The position numbers and the translations under genes were made by a program. A stretch of DNA of 36,207 nucleotides from a virus (lineage: Duplodnaviria; Heunggongvirae; Uroviricota; Caudoviricetes). The stretch lies in IMG/VR virus record IMGVR_UViG_2541047897_000007, positions 1 through 36,207 of that record; one strand, given 5' to 3'. Numbering within the stretch: the first letter of the stretch is position 1; each line of letters begins with the position of its first letter. Positions 9,178 to 36,207 of this stretch are shown in pieces. The notes below the pieces were generated by a model, which worked only from the letters and a program-made list of their open reading frames with translations, made no database searches and had not been told where the DNA came from.

Positions 9178-10137
9178 ATGAAAATTTGTATCGATGACGG
9201 CTCCACCAACATCAAGCTGGCATGGACTGAGAACGGCGAACGCCGCAACGCCATCAGCCCAAACAGCTTCAAGTCGGAATGGTCTGCGCCGTTCGGTGGC
9301 ACGCAGCCCGCGAACTACATGCTTGATGGCGTGCGCTATGGTTTTGATCCGGTCAGCGATCGCTTTGTCCAGACGACCGACACGCAATACCAGTACAGCG
9401 ATGTGAATGTCATTGCCATTCATCACGCGCTGGTCAAATCAGGCATCACACCACAGGAAGTGGATGTGGTTGTCACCCTGCCACTGAGCGAATATTTCGA
9501 CACAAACGCACAGCCGGTCATGGCCAACATCAACCGCAAAAAAGCAAACGTCATGCGCCCGGTGGCGTACCAGAACGGAAAAGCATTCACTATCCGTAAC
9601 GTACGGGTTATGCCTGAATCCATTCCGGCTGGTTTTAAAGCACTGGCTGACATGAGTCCGTTTGAATCCCTGCTGATTGTGGATTTAGGCGGAACCACGC
9701 TGGATGTGGCAAAGGTTCAGGGACAACTGGCAGGTATCAGCCAGGTGTTTTGCGATCCACACGTAGGCGTTTCCCTGATGGCCGATGCCGTACTGTCGGT
9801 GATGGCCACTAACGGTATGCGTACCAGTCACCACATCGCCAATACCATTATCGAACATCGCCATGATGAAGCTTGGCTGCGCCAGCACATCCACAATGAC
9901 GCGCATTACGACAGCCTGATAGCGGTTATTCGTGAAAAGGAAGAAACACTGAAACAACGCGTGATCCGCGCGCTGGCGGGTTTTTCGGGTTACGGGCGGG
10001 TGATGGTTGTCGGTGGCGGGGCGGAGATTGTGGCACCCGCTATCCGCGAAGCCTGCGGAGTTAATGCGACTTTCATCGCGGACGGGGTGCCACAGTTTGC
10101 TCTGGTTAATGGGCTGTACGCAATGGACAAGGAGTAA
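9178..10137 (+). CDS. parM: ParM/StbA-like actin-type segregation ATPase
   Basis: 319-aa ORF; actin-fold motifs IDDGSTNIKL, IVDLGGTTLD and VVGGGAE; close match along its length to plasmid R1 ParM as recalled from memory. Confidence 0.85.
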   Translation: MKICIDDGSTNIKLAWTENGERRNAISPNSFKSEWSAPFGGTQPANYMLDGVRYGFDPVSDRFVQTTDTQYQYSDVNVIAIHHALVKSGITPQEVDVVVTLPLSEYFDTNAQPVMANINRKKANVMRPVAYQNGKAFTIRNVRVMPESIPAGFKALADMSPFESLLIVDLGGTTLDVAKVQGQLAGISQVFCDPHVGVSLMADAVLSVMATNGMRTSHHIANTIIEHRHDEAWLRQHIHNDAHYDSLIAVIREKEETLKQRVIRALAGFSGYGRVMVVGGGAEIVAPAIREACGVNATFIADGVPQFALVNGLYAMDKE

Positions 10138-23365: not shown

Positions 23366-23966
23366 TTCGTTGTTACCCCCATCAGCCAGCAATTTCATGC
23401 GTTGTGCCGAAGCCGTCGGAACACGCATTACAGACATTCCGGTAGACCTCAACACGTTGTGGTCGCCGGACACCTGCCCGGTGCATCTGCTGCCTTATCT
23501 CGCCTGGGCGTTTTCCGTTGACCGCTGGGATCGCAACTGGCCGGAAGAGACAAAGCGACAGGTGATTCGTGATGCATGGCTGATACACCGACACAAAGGG
23601 ACCATCAGCGCACTGCGAAGAGCCGTGGAGCCTCTCGGCTACCTGATTGAAGTAAAGGAGTGGTGGCAACTCAATGAGGAGCCTGGGACATTTCGCATTG
23701 TTGTCGGAGTACTTGATCAGGGCATCACCGATGAAATGCATCAGGAACTTGAACGCCTTATTGCGGATGCAAAACCAGTAAGTCGCCATCTGACAGGGCT
23801 GGCGATCAGTCTGAGTGTGAACGGAAAGATTTTCGTTGGTACGGGATGCTATCACGGCGATGCCCTGACGGTTTACCCCTACACCCCGGAGTCCATTATT
23901 GTCGAAGGGGATTATTTCTCTGCCCCGGCCATTCATTTAATTGATAATCTGAGAGTAAACGCATGA
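23358..23966 (+). CDS. I: baseplate/tail protein I
   Basis: ATG at 23358 preferred over the upstream ORF-track start; WSPDTCPVHLLPYLAWAFSVD matches the conserved P2 gpI N-terminal region as recalled. Confidence 0.8.
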   Translation: MSNSLLPPSASNFMRCAEAVGTRITDIPVDLNTLWSPDTCPVHLLPYLAWAFSVDRWDRNWPEETKRQVIRDAWLIHRHKGTISALRRAVEPLGYLIEVKEWWQLNEEPGTFRIVVGVLDQGITDEMHQELERLIADAKPVSRHLTGLAISLSVNGKIFVGTGCYHGDALTVYPYTPESIIVEGDYFSAPAIHLIDNLRVNA

Positions 23967-26134
23967 CAATGAAATACTACGCCATTCTGACTAATCAGGG
24001 CGCGGCACGACTGGCTAACGCGACGATGCTCGGCAGTAAGCTGAATCTGACGCAAATGGCCGTTGGTGATGCAAATGGTGTGTTACCAACACCAAACCCT
24101 GCACAAACAAAACTGATTAACCAGAAACGCATTGCACCGCTGAATCTTCTGAGTGTTGACCCTAACAATCAGAGCCAGATTATTGCGGAGCAAATTATCC
24201 CTGAAGACGAGGGAGGATTCTGGATCCGTGAGATTGGTCTTTATGATGATAAAGGTGTACTCATTGCGGTGGCAAACTGCCCGGAAACGTACAAACCGCA
24301 GTTGCAGGAAGGCAGTGGACGCACCCAGACTATCCGCATGATTCTGGTTGTCACGAACACCAAAGCCATCACGCTGAAAATCGACCCGTCTGTGGTTCTG
24401 GCAACCCGCAAATATGTGGATGATAAAATCTCAAAGCACGAGCAGTCACGACGTCACCCGGACGCCTCGCTGACCGCAAAAGGCTTTGTTCAACTTAGCA
24501 GCGCCACGGACAGTCAATCAGAAACTGAGGCTGCCACGCCGAAGGCTGTGAAAATCGCGTATGATCTGGCCCGGGGAAAATACACAGCCCAGGATGCAAC
24601 AACGACCCGTAAAGGGATCGTACAACTGAGCAGTGCCATCAACAGCACGTCTGAAACGCTGGCCGCCACACCAAAAGCCGTCAAGGCTGCATACGACCTT
24701 GCAGCTGGCAAGGCACCCGTCAGCCACACTCACCCGTGGAGTCAGATAACGGGAGTGCCTGCTGCCTCGCTGACGGCAAAAGGCACCGTACAACTGAGCA
24801 GTGCCACGGACAGTCAATCAGAAACTGAGGCTGCCACGCCGAAGGCTGTGAAAATCGCGTATGATCTGGCCCGGGGAAAATACACAGCCCAGGATGCAAC
24901 AACGACCCGTAAAGGGATCGTACAACTGAGCAGTGCCACCAACAGCACCTCTGAAACGCTGGCCGCCACACCAAAAGCCGTCAAGGCTGCATACGACCTT
25001 GCAGCCGGCAAGGCGCCCGTCAGCCACACTCACCCGTGGAGTCAGATAACGGGAGTGCCTGCTGCCTCGCTGACGGCAAAAGGCACCGTACAACTGAGCA
25101 GTGCCATCAACAGCACGTCTGAAACGCTGGCCGCCACACCGAAGGCCGTCAAGGCTGCATACGACCTTGCAGCCGGCAAGGCGCCCGTCAGCCACACTCA
25201 CCCGTGGAGTCAGATAACGGGAGTGCCTGCTGCCTCGCTGACGGCAAAAGGCACCGTACAATTGAGCAGTGCCATCAACAGCACGTCTGAAATACTGGCC
25301 GCCACACCGAAAGCGGTCAAGGCTGCATACGACCTTGCAGCTGGCAAGGCACCCGTCAGCCACACTCACCCGTGGAGTCAGATAACGGGAGTGCCTGCTG
25401 CCTCGCTGACGGCAAAAGGCACCGTACAATTGAGCAGTGCCATCAACAGCACGTCTGAAATACTGGCCGCCACACCGAAAGCGGTCAAGGCTGCATACGA
25501 TCTGGCAAACGGAAAACAACCGGCAGATGCCACGCTCACTGCTCTGGCAGGACTTGTCACTGCAGCAGATCGGTTGCCTTATTTTACCGGAGCAGACCGC
25601 GCAGCGCTGGCAACCCTTACAGCTATTGGTCGCGCTATTATCGCTAAGGGCAGTATAAAAGATGTCCTCAATTACCTTGGTTTGGGAGAAGGTTCTCCAG
25701 CTATTGGCGTTCCGTTCTTCTGGCCGTCCGCCGCAATGCCAGATACCGTAATCAAAAGCTGGTCCAGTATGGTGTTTTTGAAGTTCAACGGGGCGAAATT
25801 TTCTGCCTCTGATTACCCTGTGCTGGCAAAAGTGTTTCCTTCGCTGGTATTACCTGAAGCCCGCGGTGATTTCATTCGTATCTGGGATGACGGGCGAGGT
25901 GCAGACGGTGGTCGCAAATTATTAAGCTGGCAGGCAGCTACAAACTTTTCTCAGTTTGCCGGGAATATAGGCGGAGGTGCGGGACACGCAATTAATTTTC
26001 ATGATGGCATCGCCGGAAATCAGCCAGGATTTTCACGATTTAATTTCACCAGTAACTCTTTGGGTGATGGTGTGAATTTTGTTGCTGTCAGACCGCGAAA
26101 TATTGCATTTAACTTTCTGGTGAGGGCTAAATAA
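23963..26134 (+). CDS. H: tail fibre protein (P2 gpH-like) with internal tandem repeats and an invertible C-terminal segment
   Basis: 723-aa ORF; N-terminus MKYYAILTNQGAARLANA is gpH-like; internal 100-aa and 56-aa repeats; C-terminal 148 aa lie inside the invertible segment. Confidence 0.9.
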   Translation: MTMKYYAILTNQGAARLANATMLGSKLNLTQMAVGDANGVLPTPNPAQTKLINQKRIAPLNLLSVDPNNQSQIIAEQIIPEDEGGFWIREIGLYDDKGVLIAVANCPETYKPQLQEGSGRTQTIRMILVVTNTKAITLKIDPSVVLATRKYVDDKISKHEQSRRHPDASLTAKGFVQLSSATDSQSETEAATPKAVKIAYDLARGKYTAQDATTTRKGIVQLSSAINSTSETLAATPKAVKAAYDLAAGKAPVSHTHPWSQITGVPAASLTAKGTVQLSSATDSQSETEAATPKAVKIAYDLARGKYTAQDATTTRKGIVQLSSATNSTSETLAATPKAVKAAYDLAAGKAPVSHTHPWSQITGVPAASLTAKGTVQLSSAINSTSETLAATPKAVKAAYDLAAGKAPVSHTHPWSQITGVPAASLTAKGTVQLSSAINSTSEILAATPKAVKAAYDLAAGKAPVSHTHPWSQITGVPAASLTAKGTVQLSSAINSTSEILAATPKAVKAAYDLANGKQPADATLTALAGLVTAADRLPYFTGADRAALATLTAIGRAIIAKGSIKDVLNYLGLGEGSPAIGVPFFWPSAAMPDTVIKSWSSMVFLKFNGAKFSASDYPVLAKVFPSLVLPEARGDFIRIWDDGRGADGGRKLLSWQAATNFSQFAGNIGGGAGHAINFHDGIAGNQPGFSRFNFTSNSLGDGVNFVAVRPRNIAFNFLVRAK
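24461..25500 (+). repeat. in-frame tandem repeat array within H (2 x 300 bp, then 2 x 168 bp plus a partial unit)
   Basis: near-identical units starting at 24461, 24761, 25061, 25229 and 25397, encoding ASLTAKGTVQLSSA...HTHPWSQITGVPA. Confidence 0.85.
25665..25690. repeat. left crossover site of invertible segment (gix/hix-like), inside H
   Basis: ttggtttgggagaa at 25677..25690 is the exact reverse complement of ttctcccaaaccaa at 27501..27514; it encodes the LGLGE junction of H. Confidence 0.6.
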
Positions 26135-26727
26135 TGAAACCTGTTTTTGATGAAAATGGGCTGGCTACAGTGCCGGGCGATATGCGTTGTTTTTATTATG
26201 ATGCTGAAACATCTGAGTATACGGGCTGGTCTGATGAATATATTAATACTGGCGTAAGTATGCCCGCCTGTTCCACTGGTATTGACCCTGGCGAAAACAT
26301 TCCGGGAAGAGTGGCAGTATTTACAGGTAAGGGATGGAGCCTTGAAGAAGACCATCGCAATGAGACTGTTTACTCAATCGAAAATGGTGCTGCTGTTACA
26401 GTGGATTATATCGGTGCCATCAAAAACGGTTATGTCACGCTTTCACCGTTAACGCCATATGATAAATGGGATGGTGAGAAATGGGTGACAGATACTGAGG
26501 CACAACACGGTGCCGCAGTAGAAGCGGCAGAAGCACAGCGCCAGTCACTGATTGATGCTGCAATGGCCTCCATCAGTCTGATTCAGCTGAAATTACAGGC
26601 CGGGCGGAAGCTGACGCAGGCAGAAACCACCCGGCTTAACGCCGTGCTTGATTACATTGACGCGGTGACGACAACAGATACCAGCACCGCGCCGGATGTC
26701 ATCTGGCCTGAACTGCCGGAGGCGTAG
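26134..26727 (+). CDS. G: tail fibre assembly chaperone (P2 gpG-like)
   Basis: 197-aa ORF translationally coupled to H; conserved Tfa-like C-terminus LDYIDAVTTTDTSTAPDVIWPELP. Confidence 0.8.
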   Translation: MKPVFDENGLATVPGDMRCFYYDAETSEYTGWSDEYINTGVSMPACSTGIDPGENIPGRVAVFTGKGWSLEEDHRNETVYSIENGAAVTVDYIGAIKNGYVTLSPLTPYDKWDGEKWVTDTEAQHGAAVEAAEAQRQSLIDAAMASISLIQLKLQAGRKLTQAETTRLNAVLDYIDAVTTTDTSTAPDVIWPELPEA

Positions 26728-27139
26728 GCCATTCAATATCTGGCGCACCGGAAGTATCGACCAGTTCCAGTGCGTCCAGATAATCCAGCCACAAATTATA
26801 TTGCGCCAGTTCCTCACCTTTCAGACGACCAATAGCCGCTTTACCAGGCCATTGTTTACTGTTCATATAATCGTTGGCCTGATTAATCAGTTGCTGCTTT
26901 TCCTGTTCGGCTGCAGCAATCTGTTCCTCATGTGTTGGTGGTGGAATTTCAGACCATGCAGGAAAACCATTTTCTCCAGCGATACGGATTTTTCCTTTCG
27001 GCGGTAATCCGGAAAACTCAATATACACTTGCTCATCAACTTCAACAGCATCATCTGGCCATGAGTCAGCTTGTGTGTAATCCTCTTTCATCTCCAAGGG
27101 ATAGAAAGAGTTTGTCGTCGCGGAATATATGTAATTCAT
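26699..27139 (-). CDS. alternative tail fibre assembly chaperone (G'), inverted orientation
   Basis: 146-aa ORF on the opposite strand with Tfa-like C-terminus LDYLDALELVDTSGAPDIEWPTPP; convergent with and overlapping G, as in Mu G-segment / P1 C-segment architecture. Confidence 0.75.
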   Translation of the reverse strand: MNYIYSATTNSFYPLEMKEDYTQADSWPDDAVEVDEQVYIEFSGLPPKGKIRIAGENGFPAWSEIPPPTHEEQIAAAEQEKQQLINQANDYMNSKQWPGKAAIGRLKGEELAQYNLWLDYLDALELVDTSGAPDIEWPTPPAVQAR

Positions 27140-27161
27140 TTTTTCACTCCATATAGCTAAA

Positions 27162-27514
27162 TTAACAGCCTAACGCTAAAAATGAAGCGCCGAGGCCAGG
27201 AGTACTGGCTCTGGATATAAATTTAACCGGGTCGGAACTAAAACCTGCACAGGCAATATAACCAACAGCCCCGCTATCTGGTGTGTAGTCTTGTGAGACC
27301 AAAACACGCAGACATCTGTTTGGAAATGCAATCGGGAAATGGGTTACTACATCCTGTGCAATGCCTGGTGCGCCGATTGAGCCCCACTGAAGAATAAAAC
27401 CAGATGGTAATTTTTGATATCCAGTACCTGAAACAGAAAGCGTGAAGCTACCCATATCAGGTATCTGATTCGTCCCTGTCCCCACATTCCTTTTTGCCGC
27501 TTCTCCCAAACCAA
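27162..27514 (-). other. promoter-less alternative C-terminal coding segment of the tail fibre (H' variable part)
   Basis: minus-strand frame open from the right crossover site to a stop at 27162; encodes ...[10 protein letters not shown]..., matching the LGLGE junction in H; would fuse to H after inversion. Confidence 0.6.
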
Positions 27515-27526
27515 CGTTTTCGTTTT
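27501..27526. repeat. right crossover site of invertible segment (gix/hix-like)
   Basis: ttctcccaaaccaacgttttcg fits the Din-family crossover pattern (TTCTC..AAACC-NN-GGTTT) recalled from memory; 55 bp upstream of the invertase start. Confidence 0.6.
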
Positions 27527-27580
27527 TATCCCTACCTATACCAACTCTGTATTTTTCACGAAACAAAGAGGATGTTTTTT

Positions 27581-28180
27581 ATGCAAATTGGCTATATTCG
27601 TGTGTCAACAAACGACCAGAACACGGATTTACAACGCAATGCACTGAACTGCGCAGGATGTGAACTGATTTTTGAAGATAAAATCAGCGGAACGAAATCA
27701 ACCAGACCGGGATTGAAAAAACTGCTCAGAACGCTATCAGAAGGAGATACGCTGGTTGTCTGGAAGCTGGACAGACTGGGCAGAAGTATGAAACACCTGA
27801 TCACGCTTATTGAGGAATTGCGGGAAAAAGGTGTTAATTTCCGTAGTCTGACGGACAGCATTGACACGTCAACACCCATGGGGCGTTTCTTTTTTCACGT
27901 CATGGGGGCTTTAGCCGAAATGGAACGTGAATTAATTGTAGAACGTACACTGGCCGGGCTGGCAGCAGCACGCGCACAAGGACGCATTGGCGGACGTCGC
28001 CCGAAGTTGACAAAAGAACAACACGAGCAAATAGCAAGGCTGATTAAAAACGGTCATGACAGGAAACAACTGGCGATCATTTACGACATCGGCATATCGA
28101 CGATTTATCGTTATCACCCTGTAGGCGATATACAGGCTGAAGCAACAACTAGGCAGACTCAGGAAAATGAAAACCGCTAA
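27581..28180 (+). CDS. serine recombinase, DNA invertase of the Gin/Hin/Pin/Cin family
   Basis: 199-aa ORF; N-terminus MQIGYIRVSTNDQNTDLQRNAL with catalytic Ser, LVVWKLDRLGRSMKHL and C-terminal HTH; close to Gin as recalled. Confidence 0.9.
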   Translation: MQIGYIRVSTNDQNTDLQRNALNCAGCELIFEDKISGTKSTRPGLKKLLRTLSEGDTLVVWKLDRLGRSMKHLITLIEELREKGVNFRSLTDSIDTSTPMGRFFFHVMGALAEMERELIVERTLAGLAAARAQGRIGGRRPKLTKEQHEQIARLIKNGHDRKQLAIIYDIGISTIYRYHPVGDIQAEATTRQTQENENR

Positions 28181-28197
28181 TCTGACCATTAGCGGTT
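28171..28197. terminator. hairpin between convergent invertase and U genes (candidate bidirectional terminator)
   Basis: aaaccgctaat-ctgacc-attagcggttt, an 11-bp perfect stem overlapping the invertase stop. Confidence 0.4.
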
Positions 28198-28206
28198 TTG
28201 CGTTAA

Positions 28207-28701
28207 TCAAAACAGCCCTTTAACGGAGCTGGCCGCGCTGTTAAGGGATGATGTGACCTTATCTTTGAAGCCGGACAGCATATCACTGAACGATGAGGAT
28301 TGCAGGCGCTCCCGCAAATCCTCATCACAGCGTTCAAGGGTCAGTGAAAATTCTATCTTTTTCGCCTTACCGTAGCGATCAAACTCGGAACGGGTCGTAT
28401 TCGTTTCGGTCAGGACATACATGCCGTAAATCTGCCCGACACCATCAATCAGAGGCCAGGGGCGTCCTGTATATGCCTGCGTGGTCAGCAACGAAAGCGA
28501 CACTTCGCCACCTGTAATTTCAGGATAAAGCACGCCTGAAAGCACGATGCGATCATCACCTGCACCGATATACTGCCAGCTTGCTGAACGGTTAACGCGT
28601 TCATTTTTCACATGCCGCCAGCTTTTGCTTTGCTGTAACTGCTGATGCGGCAACGTGCGCAGCTCAAAAACAAACATGCCGTAGATCATCATCATGGCCA
28701 T
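28207..28701 (-). CDS. U: tail protein U (tail terminator, P2 gpU-like)
   Basis: 164-aa ORF directly downstream of the tape measure gene on the minus strand; size and position as P2 U. Confidence 0.75.
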   Translation of the reverse strand: MAMMMIYGMFVFELRTLPHQQLQQSKSWRHVKNERVNRSASWQYIGAGDDRIVLSGVLYPEITGGEVSLSLLTTQAYTGRPWPLIDGVGQIYGMYVLTETNTTRSEFDRYGKAKKIEFSLTLERCDEDLRERLQSSSFSDMLSGFKDKVTSSLNSAASSVKGLF

Positions 28702-28707
28702 GACTCC

Positions 28708-31700
28708 TCAATCTTTATCGTAAAAACTGCCACGCCCGGCACGGGCGCGCCGTTCCATTTCTGCCCTGACCATTTCACCGACCAGTTTCGCCAGTTCGCG
28801 GGGATTCTGCGTAACAACGTTATGCAGATGAACATGAATTTCACCACCAAATCCGGAGGCAACAGGCTCCCGGTTACGGGAAGTTACAGGAACTGATGCC
28901 ACTGGCGATCGTATGGCCTCCGCCACCGGGCGGGAGCTGGCCGCAACAACAGGGACCAGCGCCGGAGGCAGCGGAGCCGGGACCACGGGTGTGGTATTAA
29001 TTGCGGGGGCAGGCTTACTGACCTGCGCAATCTTCCGCTCCTGCCACTCCCCACCAGGGACCAGCGCCAGAGGCAGCGGAGCAGGGACCACGGGTGTGAT
29101 ATTAATTGCGGGGGCAGGCTTACTGACCTGCGCAATCTTCCGCTCCTGCCACTCCCCACCAGGGACCAGCGCCGGAGGCAGCGGAGCAGGGACCACGGGT
29201 GTGATATTAATTGCGGAGGCAGGCTTACTGACCTGCGCAATCTTCCGCTCCTGCCACTCCCCACCAGGGACCAGCGCCAGAGGCAGCGGAGCAGGGACCA
29301 CGGGTGTGATATTAATTGCGGGGGCAGGCTTACTGACCTGCGCAATCTTCCGCTCCTGCCACTCCCCACCAGGGACCAGCGCCAGAGGCAGCGGAGCAGG
29401 GACCACGGGTGTGATATTAATTGCGGGGGCAGGCTTACTGACCTGCGCAATCTTCCGCTCCTGCCACTCCCCACCAGGGACCAGCGCCGGAGGCAGCGGA
29501 GCAGGGACCACGGGTGTGATATTAATTGCGGAGGCAGGCTTACTGACCTGCGCAATCTTCCGCTCCTGCCACTCCCCACGAACGGCAAGTGCGCGGGGCA
29601 GGTTCTTAAAGACAATATCACCGGGGCCAATGCGTTTTTTCGTCTCATCAACCAGCTTACCTGTGTTATCAGCAATTTTGCTGAGTCTGCGTAGCGTACC
29701 GGTATTGCTGTCTGTGAGCGGTTTGTTGTCTTTGGGTTTATCGCCTCCGGTGCCATTGCCATTTTCCGCAGACTTCGGCGGATTGATTTTCGCAATGTCT
29801 CCCTGAAACAGAGCAACCTTGTCCTGAAGAATGGCCGCACGCTGTGCGTCTTCAATTTTCTTGCGCGCCCTTTCCGCTTCATCCGGAAGGACGCCAAGTT
29901 TTTCAAGTATCCACGCCAGCGTATCCAGTAGCATTTTTGCAGGTGTCAGAACAAGCTGTAACGCACCGCCAAGAACGTTACCGAATATCTCGCCAGCACT
30001 GGTACATTTATCCAGCGTTTCCTTGCTGGACTCCATCGGTGACAGCAGCGATTTAAACCAGTTAAAGACCTGAATAATCCCATCGCGCACGACATCAAAA
30101 ACAGGACCGAACCGTTCAAAGGTTTCGCGCAACGGAGCCAGTCGTTCCATAATCCCGTTGAACACCCCGATATAAAACGCCTTGATGGGTTCCCAGTATT
30201 TCCAGATGAGAACTGCCGCAGCCACAAACGCGGCAACAATCAATCCGACCGGACTGAACAGCGCCCCGATAGCGCCACCCAGCAACGAGATGGAACCTGT
30301 TACCATTCCCCATAGTGCTGGCAGCACCCTGACGACATTCATTGATCCTGTCAGGAGAGAAAAACCGAGACGTAACGTAGCCAGCTTCCCGTGAAGCACC
30401 CCAATAACCAGAGACAACGAACCAACCGTTGCTGTTGTCGCCAGCAGTGCGCCTCCCGCTATCAGTAACTGGCGCGTCAGTACCGGATGGGCCTGCGCCA
30501 GCGCCGTCACCTTTGAGACCACCCGCGTGAGCCACTGCGTGACAGAACGCAGCGGACCGTCAATCAGATCTGCAATGCGGATGCGCAACCCTTCCCATGC
30601 ACTGCCGAGTGATTTCAGATCGCCATCAAGGTTGTTGGCCATAACCTTTGCCGTGCGTTCAGCCTCACCGCGTGCGCCCTCAAGTTCTTTTCTCAGTTTG
30701 GGTAAGGAACCGTCACCCGCCGCATCAACGAGTGCCATAAACGATGTGAAAGCCTCTTCCCCGGCGATGTCCTTAAAGAAGGATACCCGGTCAACTTCCC
30801 CGTATTTGCGGGTGGCTTTATAAAGGTCAGCCAGCAGATCTTCCATCGGGCGCATTTTGCCCCCGGCATCCGAGACGGACACGCCCAGCTCTTTCAGAGC
30901 TTCTGCCGCCGCCTTTGGCGGTGATGCCAGACGAGCCAGGCTGGCACGCATTGCCGTCCCGGCATCACTCCCTCTGATGCCCATATTCGCCAGCACGCCC
31001 GCCATCGCTGCGGCCTGCTCCAGCGATATCCCCAGCTTACCCGCCACCGGACCGGCATATTTCATGGTTTCGCCCAGTGCGCGAAGGTCAGTGTTGGTAC
31101 GGGTAAACGCTGCGGTGAGTGTGTCTCCGACCCGGTCCATCTGGTCAGCAGAAAGGCCGAACTGCGTCAGGATATTTGAGCCAATATCTGCCGTCTCGCC
31201 GAGATCCATACCGCCAGCCGTTGCCATGCTCAGTACGCCGGGAAGCGCAGCCTGAATGGCCTGCGGAGTGAAGCCTGCCATTGCAAGAAATGCCTGCCCA
31301 CTGGCGGCATCGCCTGCGGTGAACTGCGTTTCAGAGCCAAGTTTTAACGCCTGCTCACGCAGCGCCTTAAACTGCGGGCTGTTTTTGTCGATTCGCGTCA
31401 GTGCCTGAACGCGGGACATCTCTTTCCCGAACCCGATCGCAGGCTGCAAAAAACGCCCGGCAGCATAGCCGCCAGCCGCTGCCGCACCAATTGCCAGCGC
31501 ACCACCTGTTTTCAGTTTTCCTGCTGTTTCCTGCGCGCGCGAATACCGCTCACGCGCACGCGTTACACGCGCAAGCGCCTGCTGTTCGCGTTCAAGCTGA
31601 TTGTTGTACTGTTCGGTGCGTCTGATGGCCTGCTGGATGGTGTTATCGCTGCCTGTCAGGGAAATGCCGTGGCGTTTCAGCTCTCCGCCAAGCTCCCGCA

Positions 31701-32076
31701 TTTTCTGAATTTCCCGTGTGCGCGATTCATTCAGGCGTTCAAGCCGGGTGCTTAACTGCTGCATCAGCTTTTGTTGTTTTTCGCTGAGCACTGTACCCGT
31801 GCGTTGTAACTGATTAAGGGCGTTAAGCTGGCGTCGTGCTTTCACGATGCCAGCATCCGCTTTACTGACAGCGTCACGGGCGCGCTCAAATGAACGCGCC
31901 TGACGCTCGAGATTTTTGATCGCCCCCTGCGTTCGCTGGATGGAGTCACCAAACTGCCCCATCAGGCGGCGGGCGTTTTCGGCAGGCCGGGTCAGCCTGT
32001 CAACGGCGCTGAAAGCGACCCGGATATCAAGAGTCTTCATTGTCTGCATTCCCGCTGCGAAGTGCCGCCCGCTCAC
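28708..32076 (-). CDS. T: tail tape measure protein (P2 gpT-like) with proline-rich tandem repeats
   Basis: 1122-aa ORF; Ala/Gly-rich helical N-terminal two thirds with hydrophobic segments; follows the E/E' frameshift genes; six 35-aa repeats near the C-terminus. Confidence 0.85.
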   Translation of the reverse strand: MSGRHFAAGMQTMKTLDIRVAFSAVDRLTRPAENARRLMGQFGDSIQRTQGAIKNLERQARSFERARDAVSKADAGIVKARRQLNALNQLQRTGTVLSEKQQKLMQQLSTRLERLNESRTREIQKMRELGGELKRHGISLTGSDNTIQQAIRRTEQYNNQLEREQQALARVTRARERYSRAQETAGKLKTGGALAIGAAAAGGYAAGRFLQPAIGFGKEMSRVQALTRIDKNSPQFKALREQALKLGSETQFTAGDAASGQAFLAMAGFTPQAIQAALPGVLSMATAGGMDLGETADIGSNILTQFGLSADQMDRVGDTLTAAFTRTNTDLRALGETMKYAGPVAGKLGISLEQAAAMAGVLANMGIRGSDAGTAMRASLARLASPPKAAAEALKELGVSVSDAGGKMRPMEDLLADLYKATRKYGEVDRVSFFKDIAGEEAFTSFMALVDAAGDGSLPKLRKELEGARGEAERTAKVMANNLDGDLKSLGSAWEGLRIRIADLIDGPLRSVTQWLTRVVSKVTALAQAHPVLTRQLLIAGGALLATTATVGSLSLVIGVLHGKLATLRLGFSLLTGSMNVVRVLPALWGMVTGSISLLGGAIGALFSPVGLIVAAFVAAAVLIWKYWEPIKAFYIGVFNGIMERLAPLRETFERFGPVFDVVRDGIIQVFNWFKSLLSPMESSKETLDKCTSAGEIFGNVLGGALQLVLTPAKMLLDTLAWILEKLGVLPDEAERARKKIEDAQRAAILQDKVALFQGDIAKINPPKSAENGNGTGGDKPKDNKPLTDSNTGTLRRLSKIADNTGKLVDETKKRIGPGDIVFKNLPRALAVRGEWQERKIAQVSKPASAINITPVVPAPLPPALVPGGEWQERKIAQVSKPAPAINITPVVPAPLPLALVPGGEWQERKIAQVSKPAPAINITPVVPAPLPLALVPGGEWQERKIAQVSKPASAINITPVVPAPLPPALVPGGEWQERKIAQVSKPAPAINITPVVPAPLPLALVPGGEWQERKIAQVSKPAPAINTTPVVPAPLPPALVPVVAASSRPVAEAIRSPVASVPVTSRNREPVASGFGGEIHVHLHNVVTQNPRELAKLVGEMVRAEMERRARAGRGSFYDKD
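28953..29578 (-). repeat. six tandem 105-bp in-frame repeats inside T
   Basis: period of exactly 105 bp (marker ggct at 29012, 29117, 29222 ...), encoding GEWQERKIAQVSKPA[SP]AINITPVVPAPLP[PL]ALVPG. Confidence 0.85.
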
Positions 32077-32556
32077 GCCAGCTAACCACTTCGCCGGGCG
32101 TCATCATGAAGATTTCAGCGGGCGACCAGTTAAAAATAACGGCAATATCTGCCACAAAGTCTTCTATGTGCTCAAAGCACACAACCGTGATCAGGCTTCC
32201 GTCGCCTGTTCGTTCTTCCCGCCAGAGTCCGCACCGCTCAAAAAATTTACGGCAACCACACATAACTGAATAAAGTCACGGGATGCCATTTTTTTGATCG
32301 TCACTTCATCCAGTCGCGGTGATGTCACGCGTGACAGCAGCGTAAACATGGATTCCGCTTTCAGATTCAGCACATCAGACAACGACAAATCTCGCAGAGA
32401 TCCAGCCTGCTCAATAGCTCCGGTGATCTCCACATACGTGATTTTTTCGCCGCCTCGCTCAATTGGTTGGGTAAGTTTTACGCCACGCTCACTGGTTTCT
32501 TTCACAGTGTCAGTAACTACCGTGTTTTCGGTATCGATGTTTTTCGTCTCTTTCAT
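32027..32556 (-). CDS. tail assembly chaperone E+E' made by programmed -1 frameshift
   Basis: the -1 frame is open from the slippery site to a stop at 32027 and overlaps the start of T, as in P2. Confidence 0.65.
32191..32556 (-). CDS. E: tail assembly chaperone E (P2 gpE-like)
   Basis: 121-aa ORF with AGGAG RBS; contains a T6G slippery heptamer near its 3' end. Confidence 0.75.
   Translation of the reverse strand: MKETKNIDTENTVVTDTVKETSERGVKLTQPIERGGEKITYVEITGAIEQAGSLRDLSLSDVLNLKAESMFTLLSRVTSPRLDEVTIKKMASRDFIQLCVVAVNFLSGADSGGKNEQATEA
32239..32245 (-). other. programmed -1 ribosomal frameshift slippery heptamer TTTTTTG
   Basis: minus strand gta aat ttt ttg agc in the E frame becomes aaa ttt ttt gag cgg in the -1 frame, which continues as FFERCGLWREER... 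Confidence 0.65.
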
Positions 32557-34464: not shown

Positions 34465-35574
34465 ATGACCGACACCACCATGCAATTGCTCAGTCAGGGC
34501 ACAGACCCCGTAAAAATGCCGGATTTTGATATTCTCGCGGAGGGTAAAACGCTGTCAGGCGTGGCAGAGCGCCTGATGAGCCTGTCACTGACCGACAACC
34601 GGGGATTTGACGCGGACCAGCTCACCATCACGCTGGATGATGCGGATGGTCAGTTGCAGCTACCGCCACGGGGCGCGCGCCTGACGGTTCTCATTGGCTG
34701 GAAAGGAGAACCGCTGACAGAAAAAGGCACTTACATTGTTGATGAAATCGCTCACGAAGGACCGCCGGACAGGCTGACTGTTTCAGCCAGAAGCGCAGAT
34801 TTTCGGGATGAATTTAACGTTAAACGTGAGGTGTCCTGGCATGATGTGACCGTTGAGCGTGTGGTATCCGCCATCGCTCATCGGTATGGTCTGAAACCGC
34901 AAATCAGCGAAATGCTGATGGATATCGAAATCGACCACGCCGACCAGACCGAAGAAAGCGACATGTCCTTTCTTACGCGCATGGCGGAAATGCTGGGCGC
35001 AATCACCACGGTAAAAAGCGGTAATCTGTTATTCATTATGCCCGGTGGTGGCGTGAACGCACAGGGCCAGCCGTTGCCATCGTTCGCCATCACACGCAGC
35101 AGCGGCGATCGCCATCAGTTCCGCATTGCTGACCGCGAGGCGTATACGGGGGTACGCGCTTACTGGCTTGATCTTAATTACGGGAAAAAGAAAAAAGTCA
35201 GCGTGAAACGCCGTAAACCGCCAAAACCGAAAAAAGAGAAAAGCAGCAGCCGTGAAGGTGATTATATGGAAGGCGCGGAAGGCAATGTGTTTGTGTTACG
35301 CAAGACTTATCAGAACGAGCAGGCAGCAAGACGCGCAGCGGCGGCAAAGTGGCAACAACTACAACGCGGAGCCGCATCATTCTCCATCACGCTGGCACGT
35401 GGACGAGCAGAACTCTACCCCGAAATGCATGGCACGGTAACAGGCTTTAAAAGCGAGATTGATAATCAGGACTGGATTATTGCGAAAGCCGAGCACACCA
35501 TTGATAACAGCGGCTTTACCACGCAGCTTGAGCTTGAGGCAAAAATCCCGGAATGGATAGCGGAAACAGAGTGA
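34465..35574 (+). CDS. D: tail protein D (late control gene D family)
   Basis: 369-aa product from the ATG at 34465 (GGGAGGGAG RBS); lies immediately upstream of ogr as in P2; a KKKK/basic patch follows in the C-terminal half. Confidence 0.75.
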   Translation: MTDTTMQLLSQGTDPVKMPDFDILAEGKTLSGVAERLMSLSLTDNRGFDADQLTITLDDADGQLQLPPRGARLTVLIGWKGEPLTEKGTYIVDEIAHEGPPDRLTVSARSADFRDEFNVKREVSWHDVTVERVVSAIAHRYGLKPQISEMLMDIEIDHADQTEESDMSFLTRMAEMLGAITTVKSGNLLFIMPGGGVNAQGQPLPSFAITRSSGDRHQFRIADREAYTGVRAYWLDLNYGKKKKVSVKRRKPPKPKKEKSSSREGDYMEGAEGNVFVLRKTYQNEQAARRAAAAKWQQLQRGAASFSITLARGRAELYPEMHGTVTGFKSEIDNQDWIIAKAEHTIDNSGFTTQLELEAKIPEWIAETE

Positions 35575-35616: not shown

Positions 35617-35877
35617 ATGTTCCGTTGTCCGCTTTGTGGCGCATCTGCCCGTATCCGCACCAGTCGTCCGGAAAATGATTCAAACACCGTGCGGCAAAAG
35701 TATTACCAGTGTAACAACCTGGAATGCGGCGTATGCTTCTCAACACTGGAAGCTTTCCATAAATTCACATCGAAACACGCCTCCGGCGTTCACTCATCAG
35801 AAGGTATCCCGTGGCATGAGCTGCCAGCTTCACACAGGGGAAACAATCAGATGAGTTTGCCTTTACCTCAGAATTAA
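35617..35877 (+). CDS. ogr: Ogr/Delta-family zinc-finger late transcription activator
   Basis: 86-aa ORF; MFRCPLCGASARIRTSR...YYQCNNLECGVCFSTLEAF has the C-x2-C...C-x4-C zinc-finger pattern and matches P2 Ogr as recalled. Confidence 0.85.
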   Translation: MFRCPLCGASARIRTSRPENDSNTVRQKYYQCNNLECGVCFSTLEAFHKFTSKHASGVHSSEGIPWHELPASHRGNNQMSLPLPQN

Positions 35878-36066: not shown

Positions 36067-36207
36067 ATGTCGCAAAAATCGCTTACGGCCATCACGTTCT
36101 GCGTGACGGTAATCCTCATCATCTGGATGCTGCACGGTTCGCTGTGTGAAATACGGATGAGCTTCTGGGGAGCGGAGTTTGCGGCGTTCTTACAGTGTAA
36201 GCAGTAA
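36067..36207 (+). CDS. hok: Hok/Gef-family type I toxin (small membrane peptide)
   Basis: 46-aa ORF read by hand; TM helix LTAITFCVTVILIIWML followed by GSLCEIR...EFAAF, matching the Hok signature SLCEIR...EVAAF as recalled; hairpin-rich leader upstream. Confidence 0.6.
   Translation: MSQKSLTAITFCVTVILIIWMLHGSLCEIRMSFWGAEFAAFLQCKQ

Follow-up and report, generated by a model that had tools for sequence, protein, structure and literature searches.

The 36,207-nucleotide window analyzed here, IMG/VR record IMGVR_UViG_2541047897_000007 over its positions 1 to 36,207, is a complete P88-like prophage (Xuanwuvirus, P2 family) of Escherichia coli UMEA 3193-1. Its tail tape measure protein (TMP) gene contains six head-to-tail units of 105 bp, where nearly all relatives possess a single one. 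We consider it probable, at roughly 0.7, that the array arose by a recent, lineage-specific, in-frame tandem amplification within a disordered spacer of the TMP, via unequal recombination or slippage. The copy number at this position is polymorphic, since alleles with 1, 2, 3, 4, and 6 copies occur in an almost identical protein background. An original prediction, made from the letters of the window alone, had called the array prone to copy-number change, and the allele series bears this out.

Six units of three types in the tape measure gene

The open reading frame (ORF) concerned and the repeat within it are located as follows.

28708-32076, minus strand: TMP gene, homologue of P2 gpT, P88 type (ORF listing, PF10145, TIGR01760, P2 gpT match)
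28948-29577, minus strand: six tandem 105-bp units of 35 amino acids (aa), head to tail (Tandem Repeats Finder, unit-by-unit comparison)
29577, 29472, 29367, 29262, 29157, and 29052, minus strand: starts of the six units

The ORF is a tape measure protein with a TP901-family core and of the P2 gpT type, as the original prediction had it. This assignment is based on (i) the match of PF10145 (PhageMin_Tail core) to residues 240-439 (E = 9e-58; 195.8 bits, cut-off 33.2), (ii) the match of TIGR01760 (tape_meas_TP901; E = 4e-87; 292.4 bits, cut-off 28.8), (iii) matches of the PHROG tape measure families, (iv) a BLASTP alignment to P2 gpT with 34% identity over 639 columns (about 640 aa; query residues 87-723, E = 5e-91), and (v) the tail operon order E/E'-T-U followed by D, which is annotated in the same way in P88, in a relative from E. 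coli sequence type 69 (ST69), and in P2. Read from a GTG at 32076, the ORF encodes 1122 aa, whereas the protein in the databases, WP_021563458.1, is read from the ATG at 32040 and has 1110 aa; an exact look-up placed this protein on scaffold KE701963.1 of assembly GCA_000460695.1 (E. coli UMEA 3193-1). The protein is indeed longer than P2 gpT (815 aa), but the 1122 aa quoted for it in the original prediction count from the upstream GTG. The start itself is ambiguous (32017-32076, minus strand), and the ATG at 32040 overlaps the end of the E' ORF, as in P2.

Tandem Repeats Finder reported an array at 28950-29579 with a period of 105, 6.0 copies, 98% matches, no indels, and a score of 1211, and chance does not produce such an array. 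Set in codon register, it comprises 630 bp, or 210 aa, and corresponds in frame to residues 834-1043 of the 1122-aa ORF. The unit-by-unit comparison revealed three types of unit in the order A-B-B-A-B-C, so that the repeats, previously described as perfect, are 98% identical, and the 35-aa unit quoted earlier matches none of the six exactly. Units 2, 3, and 5 are of type B and mutually identical; units 1 and 4 are of type A, mutually identical, and differ from B by 2 nucleotides (Pro16Ser and Leu30Pro relative to B); unit 6 is of type C and differs by 4 nucleotides from A and by 4 from B. Three units thus have Leu at residue 30 and the other three Pro; Ser occurs at residue 16 in two units, and Thr at residue 20 in the last. 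Unit C ends in GTT (Val), as does the single-copy gene, while the other units end in Gly. All differences between unit types are non-synonymous except that at position 75. Proline amounts to 20.5% of the array compared with 3.4% of the rest of the protein, and there is one Trp per unit.

Since single-copy relatives possess the unit, one of the six is ancestral; the net gain is therefore five units or 175 aa, and not the 210 residues initially claimed. The TMP exceeds the 935-aa norm of the single-copy P88-type TMP by these 175 aa (19%). As 105 is divisible by 3, the frame and the two conserved flanks are retained in all alleles. For the same reason, a phase-variable (contingency) locus was rejected: the unit is 35 codons long, and every allele is in frame and has the same C terminus. 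A doubled three-unit block was likewise rejected, since A-B-B-A-B-C is not (A-B-C)x2. Two further ORFs over the array, at 28884-29906 (minus strand, 340 aa) and 28913-29806 (plus strand, 297 aa), were dismissed as genes and are by-products of the stop-free repeat.

A separate observation concerns the unit-unit junctions, each of which gives rise to CCTGGTGG, identical to the Chi octamer GCTGGTGG at 7 of 8 positions. The motif is found on the minus strand at 29051-29058, 29156-29163, 29261-29268, 29366-29373, and 29471-29478, so that five of its six occurrences in the window are array junctions, against 1.15 occurrences expected by chance. Canonical Chi is absent from the window, and CCTGGTGG is absent at the array site in single-copy genes.

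A series of alleles in an almost identical background

We compared TMP length and repeat count with those of relatives, a check that the original prediction had proposed, and found nearly all of them single-copy and multi-copy alleles rare. In all 13 related phage records the gene spans 2838-2844 bp compared with 3369 bp in the query, which is about 525 bp (five units) shorter and corresponds to one copy. Similarly, the GDIVFKN motif and the stop codon are separated by 101-138 aa in nearly all measurable relatives as opposed to 304 aa here; the distance is 129 aa with one copy, 164 aa with two, and 199 aa with three. No tandem repeat was present in this region at any of 131 related loci (51 loci from species-representative genomes and 80 IMG/VR contigs).

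To detect multi-copy alleles, we searched with an 80-bp query centred on the unit-unit junction and limited the E-value such that half matches were excluded. The TMP gene is carried by 1375 of 5426 complete E. coli genomes, and the junction was detected in 5 of these 1375, with two junctions each, i.e., three copies. Their arrays read A-B-C and share the unit-specific substitutions of the window. The same query gave no match in 50,697 phage records. A scan for the junction pattern in one genome per species also found none, as is to be expected with only a single genome of E. coli included. A junction 29-mer (CTGGTCCCTGGTGGGGAGTGGCAGGAGCG) was used to search IMG/VR and metagenome contigs and retrieved two contigs, one from IMG/VR whose end falls within the array and one from a metagenome that has two copies. 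The former, a 7.8-kb contig (UViG_3300000357_000121), has an array that starts with unit A and breaks off 38 bases into the second unit. A contig end inside a repeat is a typical assembly break, and multi-copy alleles are therefore probably under-counted in short-read data.

Clustered protein databases were little informative in this respect. With the C-terminal 330 aa as query, only partial proteins of less than 580 aa were found, all single-copy, and with the full TMP only cluster representatives of 921-942 aa were listed. Clustering at 90% identity hides the alleles behind a 935-aa single-copy representative, and we therefore made exact look-ups of the predicted allele proteins, with the following result.

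2 copies, A-C' (C' being the terminal unit without the Thr change): 5 contigs
2 copies, A-C: 1 contig
3 copies, A-B-C, R153 background: 166 contigs
3 copies, A-B-C, Q153 background of the window: 18 contigs
4 copies, A-B-B-C (WP_306164123.1): 1 contig
6 copies, A-B-B-A-B-C: the contig of this study only

No match was obtained for A-B-A-B-C and A-B-B-B-C in either background, for A-B-B-C in the Q153 background, or for A-B-B-A-B-C in the R153 background. The TMP of the window and the common three-copy protein differ, apart from the array, at a single residue (Q153R). For annotation, these data carry a warning: all alleles fall into one 90%-identity cluster with a single-copy representative, which makes the variation invisible.

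Proposed origin of the array

The amplified segment comprises the five residues GEWQE, with which a conserved motif ends, and the greater part of a proline-rich and presumably intrinsically disordered spacer that joins the helical body of the TMP to a conserved C-terminal helix. We propose two steps. (i) An illegitimate duplication would produce a 105-bp direct repeat; the junction (CCCTG|GTGGGGAG) has no obvious microhomology to the single-copy flanks, and the first duplication was thus probably illegitimate. (ii) Unequal homologous recombination or replication slippage would then shift the copy number stepwise and generate the series of 1, 2, 3, 4, and 6 copies. Two unequal exchanges, without any new point mutation, could turn the common A-B-C array into the six-unit order: an exchange offset by two units, with a crossover within the first 45 nucleotides of the unit, would convert A-B-C into A-B-A-B-C, and an exchange offset by one unit would convert the latter into A-B-B-A-B-C.

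The three-copy prophages are 98-99% identical to the window elsewhere and 99.65-99.8% identical directly downstream of the array, in stretches that correspond to the following positions of the window.

27500-29264: 99.65-99.8% identity to relative L009
25247-29264: 99.65-99.8% identity to relative L002

The three-copy prophage is found at two chromosomal sites, one next to raiA and the other at pgsA/tRNA-Gly-Cys-Leu, which is the site of the window. Together, the two sites and the identity pattern suggest that the multi-copy TMP moved by infection or recombination. The annotation of the three-copy relatives points to a truncated gpD, a notion that we rejected, since tblastn aligns all 369 residues in one frame and gpD is thus intact. 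Judging from these sequences, multi-copy TMPs, at least those with three copies, would be compatible with a working phage.

The array extends a poorly conserved spacer before a conserved C terminus

An alignment of homologues from E. coli, Salmonella, Klebsiella, and Symbiopectobacterium showed a nearly invariant motif, RIGPGDIVFKNLPRALAVRGEWQE, which in homologues is followed by a poorly conserved Pro/Ala/Val-rich spacer and then by a conserved end, GEIHVHLH...PRELA...R.GRGSF.D.D. The unit begins at the G of GEWQE and takes in most of the spacer. The elements that border the array are as follows.

29578-29634, minus strand: conserved motif RIGPGDIVFKNLPRALAVR, directly upstream of the array; nearly all columns invariant across genera
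28855-28947, minus strand: non-repeated remainder of the variable spacer (VAASSRPVAEAIRSPVASVPVTSRNREPVAS); partial conservation (PVVAA.S.PV) and low predicted local distance difference test (pLDDT) score
28711-28854, minus strand: conserved C-terminal module (GFGGEIHVHLHNVVTQNPRELAKLVGEMVRAEMERRARAGRGSFYDKD) with a helix predicted by AlphaFold2; conserved across genera

GEWQE continues the motif RIGPGDIVFKNLPRALAVR and at the same time forms the first five residues of every unit.

We modeled the last 410 residues with AlphaFold2 as a monomer, with a 16-sequence alignment and a resulting mean pLDDT of 44.6. Helices were predicted upstream of the array and, with confidence, at the C terminus (model residues 380-403, pLDDT 78-85). 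Across the whole array and the spacer that follows, pLDDT was 29-41 and no secondary structure was predicted, which answers the check by secondary-structure prediction suggested earlier. The array is thus predicted to be unstructured, and an extended linker fits this model. Of the two roles initially considered for the proline-rich segment, a linker or a domain with another role, the first agrees with the composition and with pLDDT values below 50, while the second found no support: there is no evidence for a separate domain function of the unit in the Pfam and PDB searches. In Pfam, neither the unit nor the C-terminal third had a trustworthy match, and the only hit, CC_BshC, a sub-threshold match of 12 residues below the curated cut-off, was dismissed. 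The sole match in a PDB sequence search, 9g8s, concerns the N-terminal half (query residues 45-503) and leaves the array region uncovered.

In a cryo-electron microscopy preprint on P2, the TMP's C-terminal region was built as three helices on the spike gpV (10.64898/2026.09.14.750843). We infer that the conserved C-terminal module may be the counterpart of these helices, with the alignment of the window TMP to the C terminus of P2 gpT being weak and not significant. By this analogy, the array would lie in the tube lumen at its baseplate end, immediately above the C-terminal anchor.

Possible consequences for tail length

The TMP is a textbook molecular ruler, and the rule that its length sets tail length is well supported for helical TMP segments (PMC5099701, PMC3271669, PMC13585406); it has mostly been tested with helical segments and non-contractile tails. 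The near-isogenic alleles described here, one residue apart outside the array, add 35, 70, 105, or 175 proline-rich and probably unstructured residues. They bear on whether disordered segments count as ruler, a question relevant to the engineering of tailocins and phages of defined length.

The extra chain would sit at the baseplate-proximal end of the tube lumen, and a longer tail is plausibly expected, although the amount is uncertain, with estimates of about 6-29 nm. (i) As a proportional ruler with 1.5-1.66 Å per residue, 175 aa would add 26-29 nm. (ii) At the rate derived from the comparison of P88 with pro147, 0.5-0.8 Å per residue, the gain would be 9-15 nm. (iii) By packing volume, the 525-1050 extra residues per tail (trimer to hexamer) would require at least 5.6-11 nm of lumen at full packing, for a tube with a bore of 4 nm. 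The second rate rests on measured tails of 137-140 nm for P88 and 130-131 nm for pro147 (PMC5285337). The TMP of P88 has 935 aa and that of pro147 815 aa, i.e., a TMP that is 15% longer goes with a gain in tail length of only about 5-7%. The match of P2 gpT is confined to residues 87-723 of the TMP, so that all 120 extra residues of the P88 type are C-terminal. The spacer may therefore be partly stowed and count less than the helical ruler body.

This leads to an alternative that we regard as unlikely but deserving of serious weight, namely, that the expansion is real and the virion is unaffected or harmed by it, either because the additional chain is stowed in the hub or lumen or because tail assembly is disabled in an unselected prophage. 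The small difference between the tails of P88 and pro147 (about 6-10 nm for 120 aa) speaks for stowing, as does our estimate that helical TMP chains fill only some 20-40% of a 4-nm lumen, and the rarity of multi-copy alleles (5 of 1375 genomes), together with the bounded length of the region elsewhere (101-138 aa), suggests purifying selection on length. Yet the three-copy allele has persisted and spread, being found on 166 + 18 contigs that represent two protein backgrounds and in prophages at two integration sites; the structural genes of the window are all intact; and the lumen that the extra residues require even at full packing argues against a chain without effect.

Weighing the count of six

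Several observations weigh against a recent amplification to six copies in a disordered spacer that lengthens the tail. (i) The six-copy allele is found on a single contig of one 2013 draft assembly. (ii) Units A and B recur, and short reads may therefore not fix their order or count. (iii) A five-copy intermediate was not found among the unit orders looked up. (iv) The disorder is that of a monomer model with the low mean pLDDT given above, whereas the TMP in the virion is a trimer or hexamer in a tube. (v) The 120 C-terminal residues that the P88 TMP has in excess of pro147 and P2 go with the modest gain in tail length already discussed.

The first two points lead to the explanation that the count is an assembly artefact, in that the true copy number differs, e.g., 3 or 4, and the repeat loop was over-traversed or two similar prophages were merged. 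We judge this rather improbable. In its favor, more than three copies were found in no complete genome or phage record and the six-copy protein on one contig only; the IMG/VR contig that breaks off within the array illustrates that assemblers struggle at this repeat; related strains have up to 5-6 places that match the TMP gene and could be a source of cross-talk; and the prophage has a tail fibre gene with repeats of its own that make it, too, longer than its counterpart in a close relative, by 112 aa. We take GCA_000460695.1 to be a Broad Institute draft from Illumina reads and ALLPATHS. On the other hand, the assembly contains B-to-B and B-to-A junctions, which an A-B-C array cannot supply, and, given a single locus and all junction types present, six units would be the minimum path. 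The B-to-B junction is also present independently in the four-copy protein WP_306164123.1 from another E. coli assembly, and the six-unit array can be obtained from A-B-C by the two exchanges outlined above.

Repeats are also present in the tail fibre gene at 23963-26134 (plus strand), with tandem arrays at 24464-25507 (period 300, 2.1 copies; period 168, 3.6 copies; 96% matches). The fibre has 723 aa here and 611 aa in the ST69 relative, and the 112-aa difference is exactly two 56-aa units. This gene is thus either a second structural gene variable in repeat number or also hard to assemble.

Two functional readings go beyond the amplification as such. We would give only a small chance to the notion that P2-family phages of extraintestinal E. 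coli have, in the copy number of the spacer, a naturally occurring and heritable means of adjusting tail length or how far the ejected TMP reaches. If it were true, the 1-2-3-4-6 series would be a standing polymorphism under selection, e.g., against thick capsule or O-antigen, and its alleles would be ready-made for testing non-helical segments in a contractile-tail ruler. Very improbable is a proline-rich unit that acts as a functional module (a periplasm-spanning rod of the ejected TMP, or a segment that binds envelope components) with a selected copy number: the C-terminal end of the TMP leaves first and the differences between unit types are non-synonymous but for one, but the unit has no domain match, the spacer is unconserved in sequence from genus to genus and, in other species, differs in length by only about 37 aa, none of the 131 related loci has repeats here, and 210 aa in extended form (about 65 nm) far exceed the periplasm.

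Comparison with known tape measure proteins

The amplification reading can be set against four known systems.

(i) The closest is the TMP of P88 (YP_009113088.1; Xuanwuvirus, Peduoviridae), with 94.6% nucleotide identity over the gene, the same flanking motif and C-terminal module, and a gene order in common with the window (sheath, tube, E, E', T, U, invertase, fibre cassette). The 105-bp unit is present once in P88 and in all 13 related phage records (935 aa) and six times in the window (1110 aa).

(ii) The three-copy protein WP_042033848.1, from ST69 and other E. coli strains, is identical outside the array except for Q153R, and its array is likewise built from unit types A, B, and C; in one carrier, the prophage occupies the pgsA/tRNA site of the window. 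It differs in its A-B-C array and in its occurrence in 5 complete genomes and 166 contigs, compared with A-B-B-A-B-C on one draft contig.

(iii) P2 gpT (NP_046782.1, 815 aa) is homologous over about 640 residues (34%) and has the same position in the tail operon. It likewise has a low-complexity, poorly conserved stretch before its C terminus and a C-terminal region that is resolved on the spike. However, the region after the shared core has about 92 aa in P2, 212 aa in P88, and 387 aa in the window, and P2 gpT lacks both the GDIVFKN...GEWQE motif and the repeat.

(iv) In siphophage TMPs (TP901-1, mycobacteriophages, and the duplications of lambda gpH), repeats are gained and lost in frame and thereby change TMP length, as here, and tail length follows TMP length (PMC5099701, PMC3271669). 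Those repeats are helical, often with an 11-residue aromatic periodicity, and are situated in the ruler body. The unit described here, in contrast, contains 20% proline, is predicted to be unstructured, and is located beside the C-terminal anchor in a phage with a contractile tail. The array thus has a variable number of in-frame units and lacks the alpha-helical units with periodic aromatics of a helical ruler. According to a survey, myovirus TMPs are typically without tandem repeats (PMC13585406).

Taken together, this is the same kind of event as the known repeat changes in TMPs, with a natural allele series attached. The type of event is ordinary and the place atypical, and its product, a natural length variant of a protein that is well known, is rare.

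Gene context and further features of the prophage

The prophage is complete by its gene inventory, which comprises integrase, gpA, portal, terminase, capsid, baseplate, sheath, tube, T, U, D, and ogr; the window also encodes ParM, a scaffold protein, and the small terminase. Its placement in Xuanwuvirus is based on nucleotide identity computed for the TMP gene, which is 90-95.5% identical to the 13 P88/Xuanwuvirus-like phage records, and on the gene order of the tail module, which is collinear with that of P88. We found no mention of strain UMEA 3193-1 in the literature, and the Xuanwuvirus papers are silent on the repeat. The TMP gene has the following neighbours.

32027-32556, minus strand: tail assembly chaperone genes upstream of T (called genes, Pfam PF06528; same arrangement in relatives)
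32191-32556, minus strand: E-like ORF (called gene)
32027-32182, minus strand: GpE-family (E') ORF, overlapping the TMP start (called gene)
28207-28695, minus strand: gpU homologue (tube initiator), directly downstream of T (PF06995, Phage_P2_GpU)

Downstream of gpU are an invertase-controlled tail fibre cassette and then baseplate genes. The cassette, at 26134-28180, is invertible and of the Mu G / P1 C type, with the following components.

27581-28180, plus strand: serine invertase of the cassette
27162-27566, minus (opposite) strand: alternative fibre C terminus, gp53-like
26134-26727, plus strand, and 26699-27139, minus strand: two opposed tail fibre assembly genes

A plasmid segregation ATPase of the ParM type (PF06406, PF21523) is encoded inside the prophage at 9178-10137 (plus strand); in relatives its gene adjoins a partitioning/stability gene, which hints at a plasmid-like maintenance module. 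At the right edge, gpD (34465-35574) and ogr (35617-35877) precede a toxin gene of the Hok/Gef family at 36067-36207 (plus strand), which ends at the same position as the window.

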